Below, in pieces: positions 11,267 through 64,000 of a stretch of 64,000 nucleotides of DNA (positions are counted from its first letter, which is position 1; the number at the start of each line of letters is the position of its first letter). The notes under the pieces are model-generated. The model did not search any database and had not been told where the DNA came from. It saw only the letters and a list, made by a program, of their open reading frames with translations. The DNA comes from an uncultured Acidimicrobiia bacterium (GTDB lineage: Bacteria > Actinomycetota > Acidimicrobiia > Spongiisociales > UBA5794): positions 97,297 through 161,296 of the forward strand of contig CAWIBM010000004.1 in the NCBI GenBank assembly GCA_963834375.1, written 5' to 3'. The position numbers and the translations under genes are program-made.

Positions 11267-11346
11267 CGCCGAGACCTCACGTCGATGGCACACCTCCTGT
11301 GGGGTCCGACCCGGACCTCGATCACCGACGCCCGGTTGGTCGTCCC

Positions 11347-15508: not shown

Positions 15509-16836
15509 GCGAGCTCCTCGGCGATCCTGGCGCCGAAGCGCTCGACGGTGAGGGCGAGCAGGGCGGTGGTCGCCTCGATGCTGCCGATGCTGACCCGTTC
15601 GTCATGGCCGTGGAACAGGCGCAGCATCTCCCCGAACCCCATCCGGCCGTCGAAGAGCCCAACCCCGTAGGAAACCGCACCACGGGCGCGCATGAACCGG
15701 GCATCGGTGGTCACCGGTATCAGCATCGGCAGCAGCGACCGCGACCCGGTCAGGGCGCCGGCGGCATCGCCGATCGCCTCCCAGAGCGGGCCCGACGCCG
15801 GCGATCCGTTGGCCGGGAAGGAGATGTGGTCGATCACCTCGATCCGGTCGAGGCGATCGGGACCGAGCACCTTGCGCAGGTAATCATCGACCGTGGCCTC
15901 GTCCTGGCCGGGCACCACCCGCATGTCGAGGTACGCCTCGGCCGAGTCGGGGACCACATTGGACTTGGTGCCGGCGTTGAGGATGGTCGGGGCAACGGTG
16001 AGGTGGGTGCAGGCGTGGGCGAACCGGGCCAACGGCTCGTCCGTCTCGGCGAGCTCGTCGATGGCTTCGTCGAGCCGGTCGGGATCGGTCAGCCGCTCCG
16101 CCAAGCCGTCCGGCAGACCGGCCCCGGCGGCGAACCCCGCCCACTCCGCCGAGACGGCGGCGGGCTCGTCGGCGGCGTCGAGCAGGTCGACGGCGCTGGC
16201 CAGTCGCACCAGGGCGTTGTCGGTGCGGTATGGCTGGCTGGCGTGACCAGGCGTCCCCCGGGTGCGCAACAGCTTCCACGACGGGCCCTTCTCGGCGACG
16301 GTCACCGGCAGCCCGCCCCCAGCGGCTACCCGGGGGGTGGCGATCTCGGTGAGCACGTAGTCCGCGGGGAGGAGGTCCGGTCGGTGCTCGGCGAGCCAGC
16401 CCGCCCCGTGAACGCCTCCCGCCTCCTCGTCGGCGACGGCGGCGAGCACCAGGTCGCCGGGCAATGGAGCCAGCTCCCCCGACCGATACCGGGCGAAGAC
16501 CGCCGCCATCGCCGCGGTGAGGTTGAGCATGTCGACGGCTCCCCGCCCCCACACGTACCCGTCGTCGACCTCGGCGGCGAACGGGTCGACGCTCCAACCG
16601 GACGCCGTCACCGGCACCACGTCGAGGTGGGGCAGCAGCACCAGCGCCGGGGCTCCACCGGTCGACCCGGGCACCCGGAACACCACGCTCTGCCGGCCCG
16701 GGTGTGGCTCGACGACCTCGCCCTCGCCGCCGAGATACCCCTGCAGGGTCGCCACCGAGCGGTGCTCGTGCCCCGAGTCCGGGGTGCCGTCGTTGACGCA
16801 GGCGTTGCGAATCAGCTCCTGCAGGAGCTCAACCAC
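15505..16836 (-). CDS. M20/M25/M40 family metallopeptidase/amidohydrolase
   Basis: PHLDVVP, WGRGAVDM, VADEEAGG, TTDARF, FHGHDE. Confidence 0.88.
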   Translation of the reverse strand: MVELLQELIRNACVNDGTPDSGHEHRSVATLQGYLGGEGEVVEPHPGRQSVVFRVPGSTGGAPALVLLPHLDVVPVTASGWSVDPFAAEVDDGYVWGRGAVDMLNLTAAMAAVFARYRSGELAPLPGDLVLAAVADEEAGGVHGAGWLAEHRPDLLPADYVLTEIATPRVAAGGGLPVTVAEKGPSWKLLRTRGTPGHASQPYRTDNALVRLASAVDLLDAADEPAAVSAEWAGFAAGAGLPDGLAERLTDPDRLDEAIDELAETDEPLARFAHACTHLTVAPTILNAGTKSNVVPDSAEAYLDMRVVPGQDEATVDDYLRKVLGPDRLDRIEVIDHISFPANGSPASGPLWEAIGDAAGALTGSRSLLPMLIPVTTDARFMRARGAVSYGVGLFDGRMGFGEMLRLFHGHDERVSIGSIEATTALLALTVERFGARIAEELA

Positions 16837-16863
16837 TTCCGAAGTCGGGACGGCCCCCGGTCG

Positions 16864-17346
16864 TCATGTCGTCACCCCCGCATCGTGGTACATGACGATG
16901 AGCCGGGCGGAGAAGCCGTGCGCCTCGAAGAAGTTCTTGGCGTTGCGGTGGCCGGGGCTCACCCGGGCGTCGAAGTGGCGGTGGCCACGGCCGGCGAAGT
17001 CGTCCATCAGGAGGGTGAGCATGCGGTCCCCGACCCCCACTCCCCTTGCCTCGGGGGTGGTGTACACCAGTCGCACCACGCACACCGGCGCTCCATCTGC
17101 CTGGGGCAGGAGCGGCTCGCTCCGCGCCCAGGCGAACCCGACGACGACCCCTTCGATCTCGCCGACCACCAGCCGGGAAGTGCGGTCGCCCATGATCTCC
17201 GCGACCGCGTCTGCCGCCGGCTCGGCCAGCCCGTCGGCGAGCGGCCACATAGGGCGGAGGGCGGCCTGCTCCCCCACCGCCTCCCGGTAGAGATCGAGCA
17301 CCGCGGGCGCATCGTCACCGGTGGCGAATCTGCTCGACGGATCCAT
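16864..17346 (-). CDS. GNAT family N-acetyltransferase
   Basis: LVYTTPEARGVGVG acetyl-CoA motif A, NFFEAHGF. Confidence 0.85.
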   Translation of the reverse strand: MDPSSRFATGDDAPAVLDLYREAVGEQAALRPMWPLADGLAEPAADAVAEIMGDRTSRLVVGEIEGVVVGFAWARSEPLLPQADGAPVCVVRLVYTTPEARGVGVGDRMLTLLMDDFAGRGHRHFDARVSPGHRNAKNFFEAHGFSARLIVMYHDAGVTT

Positions 17347-18095: not shown

Positions 18096-18978
18096 TCAGA
18101 TCACGAAGTCGATCGCCCCGGGGCGAACGGTGATTCGCACCGACCCGCTGCCCACCATCTCACCATCAGCCTCAACCGGCCAGTCCTCCGGCACGGTGAT
18201 GGTGAGCCCGGGACGCCCGTCCCCGCTTGACCGCCGGGTGGCGAAGGTGGTTGCCCCGGATCACCCGCGGCATCAGATCGAACGCCCGCCACTTCGAGCA
18301 GGTGAACGCCTCGATGTCGACGGCGCCGTCCTGCAGCGACGCCTGGGGGGCGACGTTGAGGCCACCTCCGAAGAACTGACCGTTGGCCACCACCACGGTG
18401 ATCGCCTCCTCCTCGATGCGGCGTCCACCGAGGTCGACGACCACCGGGGCCCGTCCGAAGGTGGCCAGGCTCAACCAGAAGGCCGCCGTGTACCGGACCG
18501 ACCCGAGCCGGGATGGCAGCCGGTTCGCCCGCTGCGCCGAGCGGGCCACCAACCCGACGTTGGCGGCGTTCAGGAACCACCGCGACCCGAACGATCCGTC
18601 GATCCGGGCGACGTCGACGCGGTAGGTGTGCCCGGACGCCAGCAACGGCACCGCACCCTCGATGGTGCGGGGAAGGGCGAACGTCCGGATGAAGTCGGAG
18701 CCGGAGCCGGCCGGGATGATCGCCATCGTCGGCGGCTCGTCCCACTCGGCGGCCATCAGGCCGTTGAGCAACCAGTGGGCGGTGCCGTCACCGCCCACCG
18801 AGGCGAACCGGCGGTACCCGCGTTCCCTGCCCTGGCCGACGAGGTCGGCGACGTGCTCCTGGGTATCGGAGACGACCACCTCCGCCTCCACCCCTGCTTG
18901 GTCGAGGGCGGCTCCGAGCCGCCTGCTCACGTCGATGCCCCTGCCCGCCGCCGGGTTCCGCACCACCCACCAGCTCAC
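18096..18978 (-). CDS. diacylglycerol/lipid kinase family protein (YegS/BmrU-like), one apparent frameshift near 18208
   Basis: NPAAGRG, GGDGTAHW, PAGSGSDF, NGQFFGGGL; removing one base at 18207-18209 restores ...SRLTITVPEDWPVEADGEMVG...IDFVI* with the conserved DGE motif. Confidence 0.85.
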
Positions 18979-19011
18979 CGCATCACCCAAGGACCCGTCC
19001 GGGCAGAACGG

Positions 19012-19040
19012 CCAATCCGCGGCGCCCCGCCGCTCCGAAC
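19012..19040 (+). promoter_or_regulatory. putative SigK/ECF19-type promoter
   Basis: CCAATCC-N16-CCGAAC, 39 nt upstream of the DUF4331 ATG; resembles the reported mycobacterial SigK consensus (about CCATCC-N15-CCGAA, recalled); the operon ends in sigK-rskA. Confidence 0.6.
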
Positions 19041-19079
19041 CGGGGGCAACCAGAGTCCCCGACGAAGGGAGACCTCCTC

Positions 19080-20204
19080 ATGACCCTGGCACGAAGGGCT
19101 GCGCCGATCGCAGCACTCATCGCGCTGGCGGCGCTGACCATGGCGCTGCTGTCACCCGTGGACGGCGTCGATGCCGCCGACCATCTGGACGCTCCGGGCA
19201 CCATGTCCCCGAGCGGCCGGACGGACCTCGACATCAACGACGTGTACGTGTTCGAGGCGAACTCGGGCAAGACCGTCATCGCGGCGACGGTACACCCTCT
19301 CGCCTCCACCGACTCGCGCTTCGCCGACGCCGCCGACGGCGTCTACGAGCTGCGAGTCGACACCAACGGCGACGCTCGGACCAACATCTCGTACGTCTTC
19401 ACGTTCGACGACGACGGCTCGACCGTGGCCGTGGCGCGGGCAACCGGACGGACCGGTGAGGGCCCGTGGCTCAACGGCAAGAAGCTGGGCGGTGGCGACG
19501 TCGGCGACGTGATCACGCTGTCCGACGGCACCAAGCTGTTCACCGGGTTGCGCTCCGACCCGTTCTTCTTCGACCTCTCAGGGTTCCTGGGAACGGTCGA
19601 AGGACGCGGCGACGACGCCCTCGGCAACGACCCGACCGACTTCTTCGCCGACCTCAACACCCTGGCCATCGTCATCGAGGTGCCCGACAGCCGTCTGGCC
19701 GGTGGCAACCCGATCGGGGTGTGGGCCCGGACCAGCCTGGCCAGCGGCAAGCAGGTCGATCGGATGGGCCGTCCCGCCATCAACACGGTGGTGAACAGCT
19801 CGGGCCCGATCGTCGGCACCCGCACCAACGCCAAGAACCAGTTCAATGCCACCCGACCGATCGGCGACGTGCTCAAGTGGACGGACGAGACGATCAACGC
19901 CCTCCAGGCGTTCTCGGCGCTCGACACCGAAGGCCCGTACAGCGACGACCAGGCGGCTGCCCTGGCGGCGGTGCTGATGCCGGACATGGTCACCTTCGAC
20001 AAGGCGTCGACCCTGCCGGCTCCGCTCAACGGGCGGGCGCTGGCGGACGACGTGATCGACGTCGAGTTGCGGGTGGTCACCGGGGGCGATCCCCTCGGCC
20101 TGTTCATGGACCGGGATGCCGACGGAGGCGTGAACTCCGACGGTGTGGGCCCGCATGACGACTACATGACCGTGTTCCCGTACCTCGGCGTGCCGCACTC
20201 CTGA
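19080..20204 (+). CDS. secreted DUF4331 family protein
   Basis: Signal peptide ending VDA, then ADHLDAP..DINDVYVF, RSDPFFFDL, QVDRMGRPAINT, NGRALADDVID, FPYLGVPH. Confidence 0.88.
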   Translation: MTLARRAAPIAALIALAALTMALLSPVDGVDAADHLDAPGTMSPSGRTDLDINDVYVFEANSGKTVIAATVHPLASTDSRFADAADGVYELRVDTNGDARTNISYVFTFDDDGSTVAVARATGRTGEGPWLNGKKLGGGDVGDVITLSDGTKLFTGLRSDPFFFDLSGFLGTVEGRGDDALGNDPTDFFADLNTLAIVIEVPDSRLAGGNPIGVWARTSLASGKQVDRMGRPAINTVVNSSGPIVGTRTNAKNQFNATRPIGDVLKWTDETINALQAFSALDTEGPYSDDQAAALAAVLMPDMVTFDKASTLPAPLNGRALADDVIDVELRVVTGGDPLGLFMDRDADGGVNSDGVGPHDDYMTVFPYLGVPHS

Positions 20205-20216
20205 CACGCCCGACCA

Positions 20217-20261
20217 GGTGCCGGGATGGGCGCGACTCGGGGGACCGCCCATCCCGGCACC
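20217..20261. terminator. perfect 16-bp stem-loop between DUF4331 and TPR genes
   Basis: GGTGCCGGGATGGGCG ... CGCCCATCCCGGCACC; no U-tract. Confidence 0.65.
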
Positions 20262-20278
20262 ACCTCACCGAGGAGGAA

Positions 20279-21622
20279 GTGATGCGACGGGGCCGACTGC
20301 TCGCCATTGCGATCGCCGTCGTCCTCGTCGCCGGCGTTCCCCGGCTGGTCCGGGCGATCGACGGCGGCGGGGGGACCGAGCCACGGGTGTTCGCCACCAA
20401 CCTTCCCTCGCCGACGAGCGAAGACACCACCCCGATGGCCGGGATCGGCGAGCTGGACCGGCTGATCACGGTGGTGTCGGCACGGCTCGAGGGGCACGAC
20501 AACTACCTCGACGTGCGCACCCTCGGTGAGCTCCATCTCGCCCGGGCGCACCGTGACGGGAGCCTCGCCGACTACGAGGAGGCGGTGCGCCTCCTCACCG
20601 GCACCCATCAGCGAGATCCAGACGACCCAGACGGTTCCACCGCCCTCGCCGCGACCCATCTCGCCCTCCACCGATTCGGCCAGGCGGCAGATCTGGCCGA
20701 GGGCGCCTTGGCCGCCGCCCCCGACCACGTCGGCGCCCACGCCGTCCTCGGCGACGCCTCGCTGGCGGCCGGCGACGTGGCCAGGGCTCGCGCCTCGTAC
20801 ACCGTGCTCGCCGCCGCGCTGCCCGTCGACCCGGCGGTGGCGGTTCGGCAGAGCGAGCTGGGCTGGCAGACCGGTGACGTGGCCGGCTCGCGGGAGCGTT
20901 CCCGGCAAGCGGTCGACCAGGCCCGCGCTCTCGGGCTGGACGGCGGTGAGCTCGCCTTCTACCTCGTCTACGACGCCCACCGCGCCCTCGACGCCGGCGA
21001 CCACGACACCGCCGAGAGGCGCCTTGGCGAGGCCCGCAGCCTTGCCCCCGAAGACCCGTCGATGCTGGCGGAGCTCGGCCGGTTGCGCGCCGCCCAGGGG
21101 GAACTCGCCTCCGCCGAGGATGCGTACCGGCGGTCGACTGACTTGCGTCCCGACCCGGACACGCTCATCGCCCTGGGCGACGTGCTCACCGCACGCGGCG
21201 ACTCCGCCGGCGCCGAGGACGCCTACGCCACGGTGGAAGCCGTGGTGGCGCTGGCATCGGGCGCCGAGGTGTACCGGGGCGCCCTGGCACGGTTCCACAC
21301 CGAGCACGGCGACCCGGTTACGGCAGTGGACCTGGCCGTCGCCGAGGCCGAGGCACGTCGCGACCCGGCGACGCTGGAGACCCTCGGCCGGGCACTCACC
21401 GCCGCCGGTCGCCATGCCGAGGCGCAGCAAGCGCTCGACCGGGCCCTGGCCACGGGGATCGTCGACGCCGGGCTCCTCTATGCGTCCGGGGTGGTCGCCG
21501 CTTCGCTCGGCGACGCCGAACGTGCGGTGCACGACCTCGAGGCGGCTCTGTCGATCGACCCGCGGTTCCATCCGATCGAGGCCGCCGACGCCGCCCGCCT
21601 GATCGAGGAGCTGGCACCGTGA
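20279..21622 (+). CDS. tetratricopeptide-repeat protein with N-terminal anchor/signal
   Basis: Hydrophobic N-terminus; repeated helical A/L/G-patterned units (LGDASLAAGDVARARASY; LGDVLTARGDSAGAEDAY). Confidence 0.82.
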   Translation: MMRRGRLLAIAIAVVLVAGVPRLVRAIDGGGGTEPRVFATNLPSPTSEDTTPMAGIGELDRLITVVSARLEGHDNYLDVRTLGELHLARAHRDGSLADYEEAVRLLTGTHQRDPDDPDGSTALAATHLALHRFGQAADLAEGALAAAPDHVGAHAVLGDASLAAGDVARARASYTVLAAALPVDPAVAVRQSELGWQTGDVAGSRERSRQAVDQARALGLDGGELAFYLVYDAHRALDAGDHDTAERRLGEARSLAPEDPSMLAELGRLRAAQGELASAEDAYRRSTDLRPDPDTLIALGDVLTARGDSAGAEDAYATVEAVVALASGAEVYRGALARFHTEHGDPVTAVDLAVAEAEARRDPATLETLGRALTAAGRHAEAQQALDRALATGIVDAGLLYASGVVAASLGDAERAVHDLEAALSIDPRFHPIEAADAARLIEELAP

Positions 21623-23157
21623 GGCGGATGGCCATCGTCGTCGGGACGCTCGTCGCCGTGCTCCTGACCGCGGCGCCGGCCGGGGCGCACCCTCTCGGCA
21701 ACGTCTCGGTGAGCCACCACCTCGGCGTCCTGGTCACCCCGGGTGCCGTCGAGGTCACCCATCTCGTCGACATGGCGGAGATCCCGGCCTTCCGAGCACT
21801 GCGCCAGATCGACGCCGACGGTGACGGCGCGGCGACGGCGGCCGAATTGGGCTCCTGGGCGACGGACGAGTGTGCCAGGCGACGCCAGGCCACGAAGGTG
21901 GATGTGGCGGGCACGCCGGTCGAGCTCGTCGGTGGCAGTTCGACGGCGGTGACGTCGCCGGGCGAGGCGGGCCTGCAGACCCTTCTCCTCACCTGTCGAT
22001 CGGGAGCCGCGATCTCGCTGGGAGGCGCCACCGAGGTCGAGGTGATGAACACGGACGACGCCGGCCTGGTCGGCTGGCGGGAGGTCGTCGTCGCCGGCGA
22101 CGGTGTGGCCATCGCGAGCGAAGCTCCCTCGACCAGCCCGAGCGACCTCCTGCGGGCCTATCCGGAGGGTCAGGTGAGCGACGTCCACCGTGCCGTTGCC
22201 ACGGTCACCCCGAGCAACTCCTCGGTTGGTAGTGCCGGGGCCAATTCGGAAGCGGCCGCCGAGGACTTGGCGGCGGCGGGAGACGGCGCCCCTCCGGTGG
22301 TTGGCGCTCTCGGCGAGCTCGTGTCAGGTAGCGCAACGGCAGGGGGGACCGGGCTCGCCATCGCCGCCGCCTTCGCCCTCGGGCTCGCCCATGCCCTGGC
22401 ACCGGGACACGGCAAGGCGCTGATGGCCGCCTACCTCGTCGGGCGGTCCGGCACCGTGCGCCACGCCGTCGGGATCGGCGCCTCGGTGGCCGTCTCCCAC
22501 ACCCTCGGCGTCGCCGTGCTCGGACTGCTGACGCTGGCGGCCTCGTCGACCTTCGAGCCGTCCGCCGTCTACCCGTGGCTCTCGGTGGGCGCCGGCGTGG
22601 TCGTCCTGGCCCTCGGCGGCTCGTTGCTGGCCCGCGCCGGTACCCGGGTGCTCGCCCACCGGCGCGGCCGGCAAGGCCACAGCCATGACGATGGCCATGG
22701 GCACGGCCACCGCCATGACCAGGGTCACGACCATGGCCACGGCCATGACGGCGCCCACGGGCACAGCCACGGCCATACGCACGGGCCTGGTCACGAACAC
22801 GGGCACGGCGCCGCCGGCGACGTGACCGGCTCCGGCTGGAAGTCGTTCGCCGCCCTCGGGCTGTCCGGCGGACTCGTCCCCTCGGCGTCGGCGGTGGTTC
22901 TTTTGCTCGGGGCGGTCCACCTGGGCAGGATCGGGCTCGGCCTCGTCCTCGTGGCCGCCTTCGGCGTGGGAATGGCCTTCGCCCTCACCGGCGTCGGGAT
23001 GCTGGTGGTGGTGGTGCGGTCCCGCGGTGCCCGGCTGCTGCCCGACCGGGTCAGCCCCCTCCTCGCAACGGCCCTGCCCGTCGTCATGGGGATCGTGGTG
23101 CTCGGTGCCGGGGTCTACATGACCTGGAGCGCGGTCGCCGATGTCGGCGCGCTGTGA
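21619..23157 (+). CDS. RcnA/NiCoT-type Ni/Co transporter fused to an extracytoplasmic N-terminal domain, with His-rich loop
   Basis: Signal peptide then HPLGN; HALAPGHGK motif; 18-His loop; GLVPSASA; several TM helices. Confidence 0.82.
   Translation: MRRMAIVVGTLVAVLLTAAPAGAHPLGNVSVSHHLGVLVTPGAVEVTHLVDMAEIPAFRALRQIDADGDGAATAAELGSWATDECARRRQATKVDVAGTPVELVGGSSTAVTSPGEAGLQTLLLTCRSGAAISLGGATEVEVMNTDDAGLVGWREVVVAGDGVAIASEAPSTSPSDLLRAYPEGQVSDVHRAVATVTPSNSSVGSAGANSEAAAEDLAAAGDGAPPVVGALGELVSGSATAGGTGLAIAAAFALGLAHALAPGHGKALMAAYLVGRSGTVRHAVGIGASVAVSHTLGVAVLGLLTLAASSTFEPSAVYPWLSVGAGVVVLALGGSLLARAGTRVLAHRRGRQGHSHDDGHGHGHRHDQGHDHGHGHDGAHGHSHGHTHGPGHEHGHGAAGDVTGSGWKSFAALGLSGGLVPSASAVVLLLGAVHLGRIGLGLVLVAAFGVGMAFALTGVGMLVVVVRSRGARLLPDRVSPLLATALPVVMGIVVLGAGVYMTWSAVADVGAL
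22675..22809 (+). repeat. (GH)n His-rich low-complexity coding repeat
   Basis: GHSHDDGHGHGHRHDQGHDHGHGHDGAHGHSHGHTHGPGHEHGHG, 18 His in 45 residues. Confidence 0.9.
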
Positions 23158-23246
23158 CCGCCGGCGGTGCCGCTCTCGTCGCCCCGGGGTGGCGGGCGGT
23201 GTGCCGGGCGGTCGTGGACGTCACGATTAGGCTCACCACCCCTGGC

Positions 23247-23810
23247 ATGCCCGACACTCCCCCGTCCCTCGAGGAGCTGATGGTGGCTGTCGCCGGTGGC
23301 GACGCCGCCGCCTTCGGCGATCTCTACGACCGGGTCGCCGGCCTGGTGTACGGGATCGTCCTCCGGGTGGTTCGTGACCCGGCGCAGAGCGAGGAGGTCG
23401 CCCAAGACGTGATGGCGGAGACGTGGCGGACCGCCGGGCGCTTCGACCCTGCCCTCGGCGGCGCCAAGGGGTGGATCGCCGTCATGGCGCACCGGAGGGC
23501 CATCGACCTGGTTCGCAGCGTGCAGAAGGGCCGGGACCGGGCTCGCACCTACGGGATCGTCGCCGCCGCCGGCGCCCACTACGACAGCGTCGAGGCGGAG
23601 GCCATCGTTAACGCCGAGCACGACCAGGTGCGCACCGCCCTCGGCGAGCTGAGCGCCAGCCAGCGGGAGGCGATCGAACTGGCCTACTACGACGGGCTCA
23701 CCTACCGGCAGGTAGCCGAGCACATCGGTGCCCCGGTGGGCACCGTGAAGACGAGGATGCGGGACGGGCTCAACCGCCTTCGCACGATCCTGGGGACTGC
23801 CGGTGGCTGA
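23247..23810 (+). CDS. sigK: ECF RNA polymerase sigma factor, SigK-like
   Basis: LYDRVAGLVYG..RVVRDPAQSEEVAQDV..WRTAGRFDP..MAHRRAIDLVRS; region 4 QREAIELAYYDGLTYRQVA..GTVKTRMRDGL. Confidence 0.88.
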   Translation: MPDTPPSLEELMVAVAGGDAAAFGDLYDRVAGLVYGIVLRVVRDPAQSEEVAQDVMAETWRTAGRFDPALGGAKGWIAVMAHRRAIDLVRSVQKGRDRARTYGIVAAAGAHYDSVEAEAIVNAEHDQVRTALGELSASQREAIELAYYDGLTYRQVAEHIGAPVGTVKTRMRDGLNRLRTILGTAGG

Positions 23811-24532
23811 CGCCGACCTCCACGACCTCGCCGCCGCCTACGCCCTCGATGCGCTCGACGCCGAGCAACGGGTGCTCTTCGAAGGGCACCTCGACACCTG
23901 CGACGACTGCCGGCGCCAGGTCGACGAGGCCTGGGCGGCCCTGGCCGAACTCGGCGACCTGGGGGCTGTCCCGCCGCCGCCGGCGATGCGCCCGGCGGTC
24001 ATGGAGCGCATCGCGGCCACTCCCCAGGAGAGCCCCAGGCACCGACCGGGCGGCACTTCACCCGATCCCCGACCTCCCACCCGACGCAGTCCCGGCGGAC
24101 CGACGCCCGGCACGCTGGGCGGCAGCCGTGGCCATCGCGGCCGCCGCCGTCGTCGGGGCGCTGCTCCTCGTCGACACCGGAACCGACGCCGAGGACGTGC
24201 TGGCCGCCCCCGACGCGGTCACCGTGCCGGTGGAGACCGAGACAGTGCCCGACGGCGTCCTGGTGTTCTCTCCCGAGCTCGGGCGTGGGGTGTTCACCGC
24301 CGGCTCCCTGCCCGCCGTTGACGAGGACGAGACCTACCAGCTCTGGTTGATCGAGGGCGAGACTCCGGCACCCGCCGGCGTGTTCGTGCCGGACGAAGAC
24401 GGGGACGTCGAGGTGCTCCTCGACGGGGACGTCGCCGCCGGCCAGGTCCTCGGTTTGACCGTCGAGCCGGCCGGCGGCAGCGACAGCCCTACCGGCGAGA
24501 TCCTCGTCGCCACACCGATCGGGGAGGCTTGA
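23803..24532 (+). CDS. rskA: anti-sigma-K factor RskA-like, one apparent frameshift near 24035
   Basis: N-terminal AYALDAL...FEGHLDTCDDC (ZAS HxxxCxxC) in frame 23803; TM helix and DETYQLWLI...LTVEPAGGSDSPTG (RskA C-terminus) in frame 23849. Confidence 0.82.
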
Positions 24533-24584
24533 CGGCGGGTCCCGCTCCCCGCGGCAACTCGGCCCCGGTCGACCCTGACCAGGC

Positions 24585-27098
24585 TCACAGCCCCCTGGCG
24601 GAGACCACGCCGCGATCGACGAGGCGGATGGCCTCGGCGGCGTCGTCGCCGAGATCGGGAAAGACGTCGCGGACCTGGCGGAGCAGGTCCAAGGTCTGGC
24701 GCGCCAGCCGGACGAAGTCGCCGGCCGACGACTCCTCGTCGAACAGGTCCTCGAGGTTGGCTCCGCTCGCCCAACGATGGATCCGCTCCACGTAGCCGTC
24801 GTCGGGTGGGCGCATCGACTCGATGCCCCTCCGCGTCTCGTCGGCCGACAGCTCCTCGCCCAACTCGAAGATGGCGTCCACCGAGTCGGCGCAGGCGGGT
24901 GTGGGCATTCCGCCGGGGACGTCGCCGCGACGGCTCTCGTACACGAAGACGGAGAGGACCGCCGCCAGCTCGGCCGGGGTCAGGTGGTCGAGGATCCGCT
25001 CGTGGGCGGTCTCCGCCACCAGCAGGTCCAGCTCGTTGTAGATGAACCGGAGCCGCTCGCCCCGCTCGGTCAACGCCCAGGCCTTCGTGTAGCCGCGGTG
25101 ATCGAGCACCGCCAAGCCGGTGCGGAACCGCTCGACCAGGTCGTCGCCGCCCCGCTCGAGGGCCCGCTCGATGCGGTCGATCTGGGCACGCACCCGGGCC
25201 GCCCGCTCCAGGCCGGCGAGGTGGTCGGCGAGATCGGGGCAGGTGGCGACCGGGTCGAGGCGATCGGCGGTCCTGTCGACCGGCGCCGCCGGCTCGAACT
25301 CGGCCAGCAGCCTCGCCACCTGGCGGGTGAACGCCTTCTCCTTGGGCCGCCATTGCTCGGGGAGCGCCAGTGTTCCCCGTTCGACGGTGGCCGGTGGCAG
25401 GTCCCCAGCAGGCAGCCGCCGGGTTCGCCCCGTGGCATCCACCAGCAGCAGCCGGGGATTCGGGCCGTACCCGCGTGCCAGCAGCACCATTCGCTGCCCG
25501 GCGCCGAGCTCGATCACCGAGCCCTCCACCAGGCCCTGGGCGAAGTCGGCCATCCGGCGACCGGCATCGGCGCGACTCTCCGCATAGGCGGCAACGTCCC
25601 CGAGCTCGCACCGGGCCTGTTCCTCCAGGTCGGCCAGCTGGGACCGGAGGTCATCGACCCGGGCCGTTTCCTGTTGGCGACGCCGCTGGTGGCGGTGTTG
25701 GGCGAACGACGCCCGCACCAGGTCCTCGGCGCGGTGGCGTGGGTACGTAGCCACCAGGTTCACCGCCATGTTGTAGGTGGGCGTGAAGCTCGAGACCAAC
25801 GGGTGGCTGCCCTGGGCGGCGATCGAAGCCACCCGGTCGAACGGGATCTCGGCCTGGTGCAGCACCACCGCGGTGCCGGTCCGATCGATGCCGCGCCTGC
25901 CCGCCCGCCCGGTCAGCTGGGTGTAGTCGCCGGGGCGGAGGACCTCGTGGGACTCGCCGTCGAACTTGGAAAGCCGCTCCAGCACGACGGCCTTCGCCGG
26001 CATGTTGATCCCCAATGCCAGCGTCTCGGTGGCGAACACCACCTTGATCAACCCGGCGGCGAACAGGCTCTCCACGGTCTCCTTGAACGCCGGGACCATG
26101 CCCGCATGGTGTGCCGCCACCCCCTCCTCCAGGTCGGCCACCCACCGGTCGAACCCGAGGACGGCGAGATCGGCCGGGTCGAGGTGGGCGGTGCCGGCGT
26201 GGGCGGTTCGGACGATCTCCGCCCGTTCGGCGGCGGTGGTCAATCCCGGCTTGGCCCCCGCCACATGGGTTGCCGCGTCGCCGCACCCCGCCCGGGAGAA
26301 GATGAAGTAGATGGCGGGGAGCATCCCCAGCCGGGACAGCTCCTCCACCACCCGGAGCCGGCGAGGAGCCACGAACCGCCGGAAGCGGCCCCGTCCCTTG
26401 CGGAGCATGGACACCACGGCCGGGTTGGGCCGCTTCCCCGAGCGGTCGAAGACGGGGAACATCTCGACCACCCGCTCGCGGTGGCGGTCCTCGACCATGT
26501 ACACGCTCTCCAGCGGGACCGGGCGGTGTCTCTCCTCGACGAGCACCGTCTCGCCGCGCCGCGCCTCGACCCACTCGGTGAGCTCGTCGGCGTTGGCGAC
26601 CGTCGCCGACAGGCTGACCAGCTGGATGTGGCGGGGAAGGTGGATGATCACCTCTTCCCAAACCGAGCCGCGGTAGCGGTCCTGCAGGAAGTGGACCTCG
26701 TCCAGCACGACGACCGCGAGCCCGTCGAGCCGTGACGAGTCGGCGTAGATCATGTTGCGCAGCACCTCGGTGGTCATCACGACGGTGGGCGCGTCGCCGT
26801 TGACGACGTTGTCGCCGGTGAGCAGGCCGACCCCGGCCTCACCGTATGTGGACACCAGATCGCCGTACTTCTGGTTGGAGAGCGCCTTGATGGGAGTGGT
26901 GTAGAAGGCCCGTGCCCGGCGACGGCGGGCCAGCTCCACCGCCGCCTCGGCGACCAGGGTCTTCCCGGCTCCCGTCGGGGCGGTGACCACCACCGACCTC
27001 CCCGCCTCGACGTGGCCGATCGCCTCCAGCTGGAAGGCGTCGGGCGTGAAAGGAAGGCTCGCCACCCAGTCGGCGAGGTCCCCCCTCCTCGTGTTCAC
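24585..27098 (-). CDS. helY: Ski2-like DEAD/DEAH RNA helicase (HelY)
   Basis: APTGAGKT, YTTPIKALSNQK, DEVHFL, HHAGMVP, ATETLALGINMPA, QLTGRAGRRGID, C-terminal AGDFVR; GTG overlaps the tatC stop. Confidence 0.9.
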   Translation of the reverse strand: MNTRRGDLADWVASLPFTPDAFQLEAIGHVEAGRSVVVTAPTGAGKTLVAEAAVELARRRRARAFYTTPIKALSNQKYGDLVSTYGEAGVGLLTGDNVVNGDAPTVVMTTEVLRNMIYADSSRLDGLAVVVLDEVHFLQDRYRGSVWEEVIIHLPRHIQLVSLSATVANADELTEWVEARRGETVLVEERHRPVPLESVYMVEDRHRERVVEMFPVFDRSGKRPNPAVVSMLRKGRGRFRRFVAPRRLRVVEELSRLGMLPAIYFIFSRAGCGDAATHVAGAKPGLTTAAERAEIVRTAHAGTAHLDPADLAVLGFDRWVADLEEGVAAHHAGMVPAFKETVESLFAAGLIKVVFATETLALGINMPAKAVVLERLSKFDGESHEVLRPGDYTQLTGRAGRRGIDRTGTAVVLHQAEIPFDRVASIAAQGSHPLVSSFTPTYNMAVNLVATYPRHRAEDLVRASFAQHRHQRRRQQETARVDDLRSQLADLEEQARCELGDVAAYAESRADAGRRMADFAQGLVEGSVIELGAGQRMVLLARGYGPNPRLLLVDATGRTRRLPAGDLPPATVERGTLALPEQWRPKEKAFTRQVARLLAEFEPAAPVDRTADRLDPVATCPDLADHLAGLERAARVRAQIDRIERALERGGDDLVERFRTGLAVLDHRGYTKAWALTERGERLRFIYNELDLLVAETAHERILDHLTPAELAAVLSVFVYESRRGDVPGGMPTPACADSVDAIFELGEELSADETRRGIESMRPPDDGYVERIHRWASGANLEDLFDEESSAGDFVRLARQTLDLLRQVRDVFPDLGDDAAEAIRLVDRGVVSARGL

Positions 27099-41144: not shown

Positions 41145-41231
41145 CTTCCGAGGCTAGAACGGTTCGTAGCGCGCTGGAGCCGCGGCCGCAGTCGAAGCCG
41201 CGAGCGACGTGAATCGACGAACTCTGGTTTC

Positions 41232-41253
41232 TGTCACAGCGGTCTGGTATAAC
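41232..41253 (+). promoter_or_regulatory. putative PafBC/RecA-NDp-like promoter TGTCAC-N10-TATAAC
   Basis: cTGTCAcag-cggtctgg-TAtaac matches the spacing of tTGTC(G/A)gtg-N8-TAnnnT; ATG 6 nt after the -10 (leaderless). Confidence 0.6.
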
Positions 41254-41267
41254 GAACGTATGTTCGA
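41252..41267. promoter_or_regulatory. LexA (SOS) box overlapping the DUF222 start codon
   Basis: ACGAAC-GTAT-GTTCGA, one mismatch to the actinobacterial TCGAAC-N4-GTTCGA. Confidence 0.8.
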
Positions 41268-42458
41268 TACAACGTCAGACAGCACCGATATCCGCACCAC
41301 CGCGGCCCGGGTCGAAGCCTGGGAAGACGAGATCCTCGAGATCGAAACCAATGTCACCCGGCAGCGGGCCCGCCAAGTCCAACTGCTGCGCAAGCTGGAC
41401 CGACACCAGGTGGACGCCGGGGCGGGGATGCGCACCATGGGCGACTGGATATCCGCCCACCTCGACGTCTCCTCCCAGACCGCCAACCGGCTGTGGCAAC
41501 TGGCCCGCGCCGGCAACGAGCGAGATCGACAGCCTGATGGCCGACGGTCGCTGCGGCCTGGACCGTGCTGCAGTGCTCGGTAAAGCTCCGCGCCGCCGAC
41601 GTAAACGACGACCAGCTGGGTAACGCCACCGCTTCGGGGTTCTCACTGGGACGGCTCTACGGGCTGTCTGGACCGGGTCCGGTCCTTCACCGCCGGCGAT
41701 GAACGCAATGTGTTCGCCAACCGGTATCTGGTGATCCAACCCTCCCTCGACGACGCCGCCTACAAACTATGGGGGCTCTTGCCCGGCGTCGACGGGCAGG
41801 TCATCGCCGCCGCCCTCGACCAGCCGGGAGACCGAGTTGCCGGTGCTACCGGGTGAAGGCAACGGGCAGGGGCAGCGCCGCGCCGACGCCCTCACCGCCA
41901 TCTGCCTCGACACCCTCACCGGACACCCGACCACACCGGTGACAGGACCAGCCCGGGCGGTGACCGTCGCCGAAGTGTTCATCGACGCCGGCCTGGCCGC
42001 TGAAGACGGCGGCGAATCCGGTGCCACCTCTGGCCTCCGGGGTCAAGGTCGGGCCCAACACCCTCGCTGAGATCGTCTGCGGCGGCAGGGTGCGGGTGAT
42101 AGCCGTCGACGGGCTCCACCCCGTCGCCTACACCGACCGCACCGACGTGATACCCCCGGCGGTCCGACGCTTCGTGCAATGGCGGGACATGGGTCAATGC
42201 TCCATCGAAGGCTGCCACAGCCGATACCGGATCCAACCCCACCACATCCTCGAACGCCACCGCGGCGGGAGTCACGACCCGGAGAATCTGGTCAGCCTGT
42301 GCTGGTACCACCACCACGTCGCCATCCACCAACTCGGCTACACCATCGACCCGGGCTCACCCATCCATCGCCGCAAGCTGCTCTCCCCCCGCCAACCCAC
42401 CGGGCCACCCCTCCGCGACCGCTACCCGCACCTGGCGACCATCGCCACCGCCGCCTAG
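41260..42458 (+). pseudogene. DUF222-HNH (REP13E12-like) protein, about 4-5 frameshifts (pseudogene or indel errors)
   Basis: Pieced across frames: MFDTTS...GDWISAHLDVSSQTANRL; QRRADALTAIC; IPPAVRRFVQWRDMGQCSIEGC...PHHILERHRGGSHDPENLVSLCWYHH (HNH). Confidence 0.82.
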
Positions 42459-42585
42459 CCGAGTTGAGTCCGGTCGACCGATCCCGGAGCCCAGGCAGCT
42501 CGATCCGAAGGAAAATGGGTTGTTCACCCGATGCGAGGCCCCTGCGACCGGAGCACGGTGGCCGAGACGAGCGTGGGAGGACGCG

Positions 42586-45828: not shown

Positions 45829-45913
45829 TGTCGGAGAGAGGACTCGAACCTCCACGAGCGATTAGCTCACCAGGCCCTCAACCTGGCGCGTCTACCAATT
45901 CCGCCACTCCGAC
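45829..45913 (-). tRNA. tRNA-Leu (anticodon GAG)
   Basis: GTCGGAG/CTCCGAC acceptor stem, TGGTAG D-loop, CCAGG-TTGAGGG-CCTGG anticodon arm, long variable arm, GGTTCGAGTCC; followed by CCT, so CCA is not fully encoded. Confidence 0.97.
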
Positions 45914-62584: not shown

Positions 62585-64000
62585 TCATCGGGGCGCCCCG
62601 ACCAGGTGGGAGAGGAACTTACCGGTGTACGACCCGGCGGTGGCGGCGACTTCCTCCGGGGTTCCTTCGGCGACGACGCGGCCACCCTCTCCCCCGCCCT
62701 CGGGCCCCAGGTCGATCACCCAGTCGGCCGACTTCACCACGTCCAGGTTGTGCTCGATCACCACCACCGTGTTCCCTTGGTCGACCAGCCGCTGCAGCAC
62801 CTCGAGCAGCTTGCGCACGTCCTCGAAGTGGAGGCCCGTCGTCGGCTCGTCGAGGATGTAGAAGGTCCGCCCAGTGGAGCGCTTCCCCAGCTCGGACGAC
62901 AGCTTCACCCGCTGCGCCTCACCACCCGACAGCGTCGGCGCCGGCTGCCCGAGGCGGATGTAGCCGAGCCCGACGTCGTACAGCGTCTGCAGGATGCGGG
63001 CGATCCCGGGCTGATGCTCGAAGAAATGCAGCCCCTCCTCGATCGACATGTCGAGCACGTCGGCGATGGAGTGGCCCTTGAACTGCACCTGGAGCGTCTC
63101 GCGGTTGTACCGCCGGCCCTTGCAGGTGTCACATGGGATGTACACGTCGGGGAGGAAGTGCATCTCGATGCGCAGCGTGCCGTCACCCTTGCAGGTCTCG
63201 CACCGGCCCCCGGCCACGTTGAAGGAGAACCGGCCCGGCTGGTACCCCCGCATCCGGGCGTCGGGTGTGGCGGCGTAGAGCTGTCGGATGCGGTCGAAGG
63301 CCTTGGTGTACGTCGCCGGGTTCGACCGGGGGGTTCGGCCGATCGGCGACTGGTCGATGTTGATCACCTTGTCGATCTGCTCGACGCCGGTGAGCCGTCG
63401 GTGCCTGCCCGGTTGCGCCCGGGAGCCGTGCAGGGCGTTGTGCAGCGCCTTGGACAGGATGTCCTCTACCAGGGTCGACTTCCCGGAGCCGGACACCCCG
63501 GTCACCGCGGTCAGCACGCCGAGCGGGAAGGCGACATCGATGCCGTCCAGGTTGTTCTCGACGGCGCCGATCACCTCGATCGCCTCGCCGGTCCCCTTGC
63601 GGCGGTGCTCCGGGACCGGGATCGACCGGCGCCCGGCCAGGTAGTCGCCGGTGATGGAGGTGGGCTCGGCCACGATGTCCGCCAGCGAGCCCTCGGCCAC
63701 GATCGCCCCGCCGTGCTCACCCGCACCGGGCCCGATGTCGACGACATGGTCGGCGATGCGGATGGTCTCCTCGTCGTGCTCGACCACGATCAGGGTGTTG
63801 CCCAGGTCCCGCAACCTGAGCAGGGTCTCGATGAGGCGGTGGTTGTCCCGCTGGTGGAGCCCGATCGACGGCTCGTCGAGGATGTAGAGCACCCCCACCA
63901 GGCCGGAGCCGATCTGGGTGGCCAGCCTGATCCGCTGCGCCTCCCCGCCGGCCAGCGTCGCCGCCGACCGCATCAGCGTCAGGTACTCCAGGCCGACGTC
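62585..64000 (-). CDS. uvrA: excinuclease ABC subunit A, C-terminal part (5' truncated by window)
   Basis: [69 protein letters not shown]. Confidence 0.98.

Follow-up and report, generated by a model that had tools for sequence, protein, structure and literature searches.

The object of this analysis is a five-gene operon located at positions 19012–24532 of a stretch of 64,000 nucleotides (nt), hereafter called the window, from the genome of an uncultured bacterium of the class Acidimicrobiia (GenBank assembly GCA_963834375.1, contig CAWIBM010000004.1, positions 97,297 to 161,296 of the forward strand). The host is given as a soil bacterium, and its metagenome-assembled genome comprises 2.9 Mb in 6 contigs, with ~72% GC and 74% completeness. 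All five genes are located on the plus strand, in the order DUF4331, tetratricopeptide repeat (TPR) protein, RcnA/NicO permease fusion, sigK and rskA. On both sides the operon is bordered by housekeeping genes of the minus strand, namely those encoding an M20 peptidase, a YegS-type lipid kinase and a HelY-like helicase. The initial annotation of this locus had described five co-oriented plus-strand genes within minus-strand surroundings, and this description was borne out by the domain matches and the flanking genes. The start that it gave, 19012, is the exact first base of a promoter motif. The features of the operon are listed below, with profile scores set against their cut-offs and with protein lengths in amino acids (aa); ECF stands for extracytoplasmic function and ORF for open reading frame.

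19012–19040, plus strand: SigK-type (ECF18/19-like) promoter, −35 element CCAATCC at 19012–19018, 17-nt spacer, −10 element CGAAC at 19036–19040
19080–20204, plus strand: DUF4331 protein, 374 aa (PF14224, 124.1 bits, cut-off 27, E-value 1.2e-35)
20279–21622, plus strand: TPR protein, 447 aa (multiple TPR Pfam families; N-terminal membrane helix)
21619–23157, plus strand: RcnA/NicO-type permease fusion, 512 aa (PF03824, 41.8 bits, cut-off 27.7, E-value 1.1e-10; HALAPGHGK motif; His-rich loop)
23247–23810 (long ORF from GTG 23154), plus strand: sigK, SigK (ECF19)-type ECF sigma factor (NF007228, 233.2 bits, cut-off 226)
23803–24532, plus strand: rskA, RskA-type anti-sigma factor (PF22618 (RskA_N) and PF13490 (zf-HC2) in frame 1, PF10099 (RskA_C) in frame 2)

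The two gene overlaps reported in the initial annotation are real. The TPR and permease genes share the sequence GTGA (21619–21622), and sigK and rskA overlap at 23803–23810, where the start of rskA overlaps the stop codon of sigK. An overlap between the permease gene and sigK exists only with the long GTG start of sigK. Since the SigK homologs align from about residue 32 of the long ORF, the true start of sigK is probably ATG 23247. A scan with the Rfam models found no riboswitch (including the NiCo riboswitch) or other RNA element within the operon.

Conservation of the DUF4331 gene and its neighbors

A scan of one genome per species revealed 580 DUF4331 loci, the best 80 of which were searched by tblastn with the window proteins; in all, about 100 related loci entered the analysis. 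A gene-neighborhood survey of this kind had been proposed in the initial annotation. The expected association with the TPR gene was found, since this gene adjoins DUF4331 in ~90% of the 80 loci and several of the gaps are contig ends. The other partners were less regular: the NicO fusion stands beside the DUF4331-TPR pair in only 22 loci (~28%) and a SigK homolog in only 13 (~16%), mostly together with RskA. All-against-all clustering of the ORFs of the 80 loci revealed no further conserved neighbor besides the TPR protein, the NicO fusion and SigK/RskA. Clusters of ABC transporter, BioY and FtsX genes were rejected as members of the module because they reflect Chloroflexota synteny. As judged from these gene neighborhoods, DUF4331 and the TPR protein form the core, to which the permease and the sigma/anti-sigma pair are often added as separable parts. 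The operon is therefore not strictly "self-contained", as it had been called, since the DUF4331-TPR pair and the permease fusion each occur without the other.

DUF4331 is sporadic in Acidimicrobiia, being found in 20 of 151 sampled genomes. A gene with the RskA_C domain was present in all 20 DUF4331-positive genomes and in 57 of the 131 DUF4331-negative ones (Fisher p = 5e-7, phylogeny ignored). In 5 of these 20 genomes only a few kb separate the DUF4331 gene from the RskA_C gene, for short and long DUF4331 subfamilies alike. The arrangement of DUF4331-TPR beside the NicO fusion was likewise found in both subfamilies.

A comparison with a close relative, L013 (CAWEUW010000009.1, ~95.6% DNA identity), revealed a clean deletion of 4.75 kb corresponding to window positions 19747–24491. 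Its left end lies in the middle of the DUF4331 gene and its right end 40 nt short of the rskA stop codon; the junction shows CGGC microhomology. L013 is a natural knock-out of the operon.

The DUF4331 protein, its TPR partner and the permease fusion

The DUF4331 protein of the window belongs to a divergent short subfamily and matches PF14224 in three stretches; the long-form DUF4331 of other Acidimicrobiia matches this profile end to end. A signal peptide was predicted at residues 1–32, which leaves Ala33-Asp34-His35 (19176–19184) as the predicted mature N-terminus. Conservation begins abruptly after the signal peptide, at (A/S/T)-D-H-L-D-A-P, where D34 and H35 are invariant. In the locus ORFs carrying this motif the tip reads ADH without exception (70 of 70), with small residues at positions −3 and −1, as in an AxA-type cleavage site. 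A single-sequence search of 1.8 billion representatives (E ≤ 0.001) gave 1,864 family clusters at 50% identity, and many of these clusters lack a signal peptide. Their residue 2 aligns to residue 33 of the window protein, and the signal-less homologs start with M-ADH, M-SDH or M-SNH (P0267, P0269, P0277, P0284, P0332, P0362, P0379 and P0383). The tip of the long-form DUF4331 is S-S-H, which follows the initiator Met in one locus (L096) and a signal peptide in another (L101). The family thus keeps X-X-His by two routes, after a signal peptide or after the initiator Met, which argues that this predicted tip is functional.

The amino-terminal Cu(II)/Ni(II)-binding (ATCUN) motif is exemplified by serum albumin, where it reads Asp-Ala-His. 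At the level of sequence, the predicted DUF4331 tip has a free alpha-amine, a His at position 3 and a residue other than Pro at position 2 (Ala-Asp-His here and Ser-Ser-His in the long form), as in ATCUN proteins. The Ala-Asp-His end is therefore predicted to be an ATCUN-type Cu(II)/Ni(II) site. Unlike that of serum albumin, this predicted tip would belong to a bacterial exported protein of ~340 residues with a dedicated TPR partner. The remainder of DUF4331 is rich in invariant Asp/Asn loops and ends with a conserved C-terminal FPYLGxPH tail.

Another explanation is that DUF4331 and the TPR protein have nothing to do with transition metals. DUF4331 could be, for example, a surface or cell-wall protein that depends on Ca and the TPR protein its chaperone, the permease merely belonging to the same SigK regulon and the N-terminal His serving catalysis or processing. 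The invariant Asp/Asn residues in DxNxD- and DxDxDG-like loops do suggest structural Ca2+ sites, the protein has no known fold match apart from a weak likeness to beta-sandwiches of the CBM9 and ethylbenzene-dehydrogenase-gamma types, and most loci have no metal transporter beside DUF4331-TPR. However, a free X-X-His end, the defining geometry of ATCUN, is kept both after signal peptides and after the initiator Met, and the NicO fusion recurs beside DUF4331-TPR in both subfamilies and carries the promoter motif as well. We consider this explanation to be quite unlikely.

Two unannotated genes were observed near long-form DUF4331. The first is located downstream of it (L096, 6382–6849) and encodes a small protein whose N-terminus is rich in His (THTHENGVTHSHGE). 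The second (L101, 4652–5617) is located between a SigK-type promoter and DUF4331 and encodes a single-pass membrane protein of 321 aa.

The TPR protein showed a weak match to TPR_CcmH_CycH, the TPR family of the CcmH/CycH apocytochrome chaperones. An N-terminal hydrophobic helix was found in at least 52 of 66 homologs, by which the protein is predicted to be membrane-anchored and extracytoplasmic. Its probable task is to dock or chaperone DUF4331, perhaps by way of the C-terminal FPYLGxPH tail of the latter.

The permease fusion has a predicted signal peptide at residues 1–23, so that His24 is the predicted mature residue 1. It is followed by a beta-sandwich ectodomain (residues ~24–200), a linker to residue ~235 and a six-helix RcnA/NicO-type permease. 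The sequence AxA↓HPLGN, in which the arrow marks the predicted cleavage site, does not vary among the 14 aligned sequences (14 of 14) and is present in other locus ORFs. The invariant motifs of the ectodomain are HPLGNF, DxAEIP, a Cys pair and GWxE. The transporter had already been identified as RcnA/NiCoT-type from the HALxPGHGK signature and a His loop, and a permease of the RcnA/NicO type was confirmed here: PF03824 scores above its gathering threshold, the HALAPGHGK motif is nearly invariant across 14 homologs (H258, A259, L260, P262, G263, H264, G265 and K266 are invariant), and a His-rich loop spans residues 355–405 (22681–22833). With the N-terminus outside and six helices, this loop is predicted to be cytoplasmic.

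Modeling of the ectodomain led to a confident model (pLDDT 84–93 for residues 30–200), with helices inserted after strand 2. The Foldseek search against the Protein Data Bank (PDB) gave Cu-bound Ang-1 (9GCE) as the top match, with a probability of 0.99, a TM-score of 0.45 and an E-value of 0.017, and the next matches were the Zn-binding proteins PA4063 and then ZrgA. EF-hand-like Pfam matches obtained with the isolated ectodomain (a DADGDG loop) were sub-threshold and were not accepted as a domain. At least 450 homologs of the ectodomain were found; among the 120 matches listed, nearly all carry PF03824. They are annotated only as RcnA, NicO or "nickel/cobalt exporter".

Ang-1 and Ang-2 are domains on HupE/UreJ-2 permeases, described by Franco Cairo et al. 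(Nat Commun 2025, PMC12537917) together with the structure of RbAng-1a (9GCE). They bind Cu and Ni through His1 and were proposed to feed the fused permeases, that is, to act in uptake; the closest structural match of Ang-1 was ZrgA (8F1B) (PMC12537917). Membership of the anglerases calls for Cu/Ni binding by a mono-histidine brace. The fusion of the window resembles the anglerase-permeases in its predicted signal peptide, invariant N-terminal His, modeled extracytoplasmic beta-sandwich, flexible linker and multi-helix metal permease. In contrast to them, its permease is of the PF03824 RcnA/NicO type and not of the HupE/UreJ-2 type (PF13795), its ectodomain has invariant motifs of its own, no detectable sequence similarity to Ang-1 and a TM-score of only 0.45, and its gene is located in an operon with DUF4331, TPR and SigK/RskA. 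Because its permease is of another type, the fusion was not classed as a member of the anglerase family; we regard it as an analog that may be a distant relative. The text of the anglerase paper (PMC12537917) does not mention DUF4331, TPR or NicO.

The SigK-type promoter and the sigK-rskA pair

The promoter at 19012–19040 ends ~40 nt before the start codon of DUF4331. Across the loci, the motif has the consensus (C/A/G)ATCC-N16/17-CGAA(C/T). In 29 of the 80 loci its core, ATCC-N16/17-CGAA, was found in the 300 nt that precede DUF4331, mostly with a 16-nt spacer, which is a 23-fold enrichment compared with the remainder of the same loci (0.016 expected per 300 nt; p ~5e-28). The −35 element is similar to the mycobacterial SigK site and also resembles an ECF18 element. 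The published ECF18 −35 consensus is GCATCC (PMC13492112, table 4).

Wherever sigK has a transcription unit of its own, the same motif stands before it. This was found for sigK close to DUF4331 (L026, L027, L054, L057 and L060), for sigK-rskA pairs that are not linked to DUF4331 although the DUF4331 gene of that genome has the motif (L088, L089, L091 and L094) and for sigK adjoining long-form DUF4331 (L096 and L097). In L101 there are divergent copies, one before the NicO fusion and one before the DUF4331 operon. Where sigK comes after its target genes in the same orientation, which is the case here, no second motif was found upstream of sigK. Within the operon, 19012–19040 is the sole plus-strand instance of the motif, and a search for sigma-70-like promoters at 18800–24900 found none. 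With no motif of its own and a single motif in the operon, sigK would be read through from 19012–19040. The simplest reading of these sequences is that a single SigK-dependent promoter serves all five genes and thereby forms a positive feedback loop restrained by RskA. The proposal of an extracytoplasmic module under SigK-type control is thus supported by the conservation of neighbors, by the common motif upstream of DUF4331, the NicO fusion and sigK, and by the co-occurrence with RskA_C.

A scan of the whole 2.9-Mb genome for the SigK regulon with [AG]ATCC-N16/17-CGAA[CT] gave 29 matches, with ~22 expected by composition according to our own estimate, and was uninformative. Outside the window, a cbiM/nikM gene, whose product starts with VHIPDGF, was found on contig C1 (~63,200–63,500, minus strand), downstream of a Fur-family regulator gene. 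A SigK-like motif ~55 nt upstream of cbiM/nikM was rejected as a SigK target because it is not kept upstream of cbiM in 7 relatives. What the relatives have in common before cbiM, next to the Fur-like gene, is a TTGCAA-N-TTGCAA palindrome, probably a Nur/Fur-type operator.

SigK has sigma-70 regions 2 and 4 (PF04542 and PF08281) and scores above the NCBIfam cut-off for SigK. Its residues 32–218 include no Cys, and nearly all DUF4331-linked homologs are Cys-free. In M. tuberculosis SigK, a cysteine pair is described as forming a redox-sensitive disulfide switch (cited in PMC7826278). Since the SigK of the window carries no cysteines, this switch cannot operate here, and redox control through SigK cysteines was rejected. 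The control by envelope redox proposed in the initial annotation is accordingly not supported. SigK proteins without Cys are known in Nocardia (PMC7509140), and the missing pair is a trait of a SigK subgroup and no ground for exclusion from SigK/ECF19.

For RskA, an N-terminal zf-HC2/RskA_N domain, one transmembrane helix and an extracytoplasmic RskA_C domain are all encoded, though in two reading frames, and the HxxxCxxC zinc-finger motif (HLDTCDDC) is retained. The genome contains two more genes for RskA_C-type anti-sigma factors (C6:2763-3257 and C2:399462-399800), which makes three RskA paralogs in all.

The initial annotation had treated rskA as one open gene and overlooked that it is split in the assembly by a +1 frameshift: the zinc-finger part is in frame 1, and the transmembrane and RskA_C part is in frame 2. 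Alignment to L004 (OY970227.1), a relative whose DUF4331 protein is 99% identical, revealed the source, namely one extra C in the run at 24033–24036. In L004, rskA is intact and scores 175 bits on NF052375 (cut-off 100). Compared with L004 and L013, the window has single-base indels over ~17 kb at 11306, 16852, 16875, 18207, 24033, 24836 and 27892; at 11306, 16852 and 27892, where both relatives were compared, they agree with each other against the window. Because rskA is intact in L004 and the window has these other single-base indels, the frameshift is probably an error of the assembly consensus rather than the mark of a pseudogene. The consensus errors suggested by the indels may break other ORFs too, for example around 16836–16864.

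If the frameshift were real, a truncated anti-sigma factor of ~170 residues without the membrane and sensor parts would be made, and SigK would be deregulated in this strain, either constitutive or locked. The extra base is present in the deposited sequence, and the loss of most of the operon in L013 points to relaxed selection in the lineage. In addition, the activity of SigK changes with natural and engineered truncations of RskA in mycobacteria and Yersinia, and a truncated RskA of 81 aa occurs in Nocardia farcinica (PMC7509140). On the other hand, the extra base lies in a C homopolymer, the other single-base indels are typical of long-read consensus errors, and both halves of rskA are otherwise well conserved, with 97% DNA identity to L004. 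A real frameshift appears improbable to us.

Two further elements were observed elsewhere in the window. The sole Rfam match is a tRNA gene at 45829–45913 (minus strand). A repeat of ~1.2 kb (41224–42461), without a clear long ORF, recurs twice on contig C5 of this genome, at 91% and 87% identity.

A possible role in transition metal handling

These characteristics allow us to assume, with moderate confidence, that the operon is autoregulated through its SigK/RskA pair (ECF19-type) and serves to handle a transition metal outside the cytoplasm. RskA would hold SigK until an envelope signal, which may be metal status, and the released SigK would raise its own synthesis and that of its targets from 19012–19040. 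The secreted DUF4331 protein would capture a Ni/Cu-type metal at its processed Ala-Asp-His tip. The membrane-anchored TPR protein would dock DUF4331 and aid the hand-over of the metal at the membrane, where the His1 ectodomain of the permease would receive it and feed its import through the permease. Sequence comparison establishes the gene identities, the conserved neighborhood, the common promoter motif and the conservation of the predicted X-X-His and His1 tips. That a metal is bound, which metal it is, which way it is transported, what the TPR protein does and what induces the operon are the steps that we infer. The initial interpretation as a whole is partly supported, its observations being confirmed save for the rskA frameshift. 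In particular, its metal reading gains support, at the sequence level, from the predicted X-X-His end of DUF4331 and from His1 of the Ang-1-like ectodomain.

The opposite direction of transport was also considered. In such a case the RcnA-like permease would expel Ni/Co (or Cu), the His1 ectodomain would pass the metal to DUF4331, acting as a metalloenzyme to be loaded outside the cell or as a sequestering envelope sponge, and SigK/RskA would answer metal excess. The best NCBIfam match of the permease is indeed the nickel/cobalt efflux transporter RcnA (NF007454; 117.2 bits, E-value 7.5e-34), although this score is below the cut-off of 195, and source annotations name homologs RcnA or "nickel/cobalt exporter". 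In E. coli, RcnA acts together with RcnB, its partner in the periplasm. The operon is similar to RcnA/RcnB in the HxxPGHGK signature, the His-rich loop and the exported partner protein, and differs from it in the sub-cut-off RcnA score, the extra His1 ectodomain, a DUF4331/TPR partner instead of RcnB and an ECF sigma factor instead of the RcnR repressor. Efflux pumps have a cytoplasmic His-rich loop, which is the location predicted here; however, cytoplasmic His-rich loops occur in importers too, so the topology does not decide the direction of transport. Also in favor of export is the dedicated CbiM/NikM Ni/Co importer with a Fur-like regulator that the genome already owns. Against export are the absence of the NiCo riboswitch or any other excess-sensing element from the operon in the Rfam scan and the fact that DUF4331-TPR is mostly found without an adjacent permease. 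Furthermore, the sole characterized fusions of a His1 ectodomain with a permease, which have the closest architecture, were proposed for uptake (PMC12537917). Export of metal for the loading of DUF4331, as the initial annotation had it, is for these reasons not favored over import, and we regard it as unlikely.

A number of observations weigh against the import of metal through a DUF4331-TPR-permease relay. The permease is closer to the E. coli efflux pump RcnA than to NiCoT importers, and a cytoplasmic location is predicted for its His-rich loop, so that export is possible; the genome already has an importer of the CbiM/NikM type with its own Fur-like regulator. About 70% of the DUF4331-TPR loci have no adjacent permease, and in two loci (L085 and L086) the permease fusion stands alone, without DUF4331-TPR. 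The deletion in L013 means that the operon is dispensable and variable within the species group. The promoter motif is missing from most Chloroflexota loci, and RskA lacks, in its extracytoplasmic domain, any His, Cys or Met that would suggest direct metal sensing. The signal-peptide cleavage sites, from which both His tips follow, were assigned by the −3/−1 rule only. The structure prediction proposed for DUF4331 in the initial annotation did yield a model with Alpha Fold 2, but its pLDDT was 68, poorest at the conserved termini, and no convincing PDB fold was found: the Foldseek search against the PDB revealed only weak CBM9- and ethylbenzene-dehydrogenase-gamma-like beta-sandwiches (TM-score ≤ 0.35), and the PDB sequence search gave no match. 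For the permease ectodomain, the PDB sequence search revealed no detectable similarity to Ang-1, the match being by fold only. Finally, no paper in the literature searched mentions DUF4331.

A broader assumption goes beyond this operon. DUF4331-TPR, with or without the His1-NicO permease, could be the ancestral core regulon of SigK/RskA in Acidimicrobiia and other Actinomycetota, its signal being the Cu/Ni status of the envelope, sensed directly or via the loading of DUF4331/TPR, and DUF4331 could represent a new class of ATCUN-tipped secreted protein "metallophores" with a new fold. This is a speculative extension that we think improbable.

The operon was compared with other known systems. 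In the CopC/YcnI-type copper-uptake proteins, an N-terminal His is present and the proteins are paired or fused with CopD-type permeases, as in Bacillus YcnJ. The similarity consists in an extracytoplasmic domain with an N-terminal His, for which metal binding is predicted here, coupled to a membrane permease. However, the folds and the permease families are unrelated, and a profile search of the operon proteins found no CopC, CopD or YcnI domain. The N-terminal His of CopC was also noted in the anglerase study (PMC12537917).

The closest regulatory counterpart is the SigK-RskA-Mpt83 cassette of the ECF18/ECF19 clade, which is known from mycobacteria and other bacteria (Veyrier et al. 2008 and 2020, PMC7509140). 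Both systems have a SigK-type ECF sigma factor beside a single-pass RskA-type anti-sigma factor, autoregulation (predicted here) and a small regulon of exported proteins with a conserved binding site. They differ in the targets, which are DUF4331-TPR-NicO here and the fasciclin-domain proteins Mpt70 and Mpt83 there, and in the location of sigK-rskA, which here stands at the 3' end of the target operon with a single promoter. Moreover, unlike M. tuberculosis SigK, the SigK of the window has no redox-switch cysteine pair. The signal that induces mycobacterial SigK/RskA is still unknown (PMC7509140).

Thus, the operon combines known themes, namely ECF-controlled metal handling in the envelope and capture of metal by a His tip, around the uncharacterized family DUF4331, and it is probably an undescribed system for the handling of a trace metal outside the cell. 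It ties DUF4331 to a predicted Cu/Ni-binding N-terminus, to a metal permease with an anglerase-like domain and to a defined SigK promoter. If the proposed role is true, soil Actinomycetota and Chloroflexota would widely possess a further, protein-based way of capturing trace metals, and the anglerase principle would be extended to a second family of permeases. The operon would also give SigK/RskA a conserved target outside pathogens, where its signal could then be approached.

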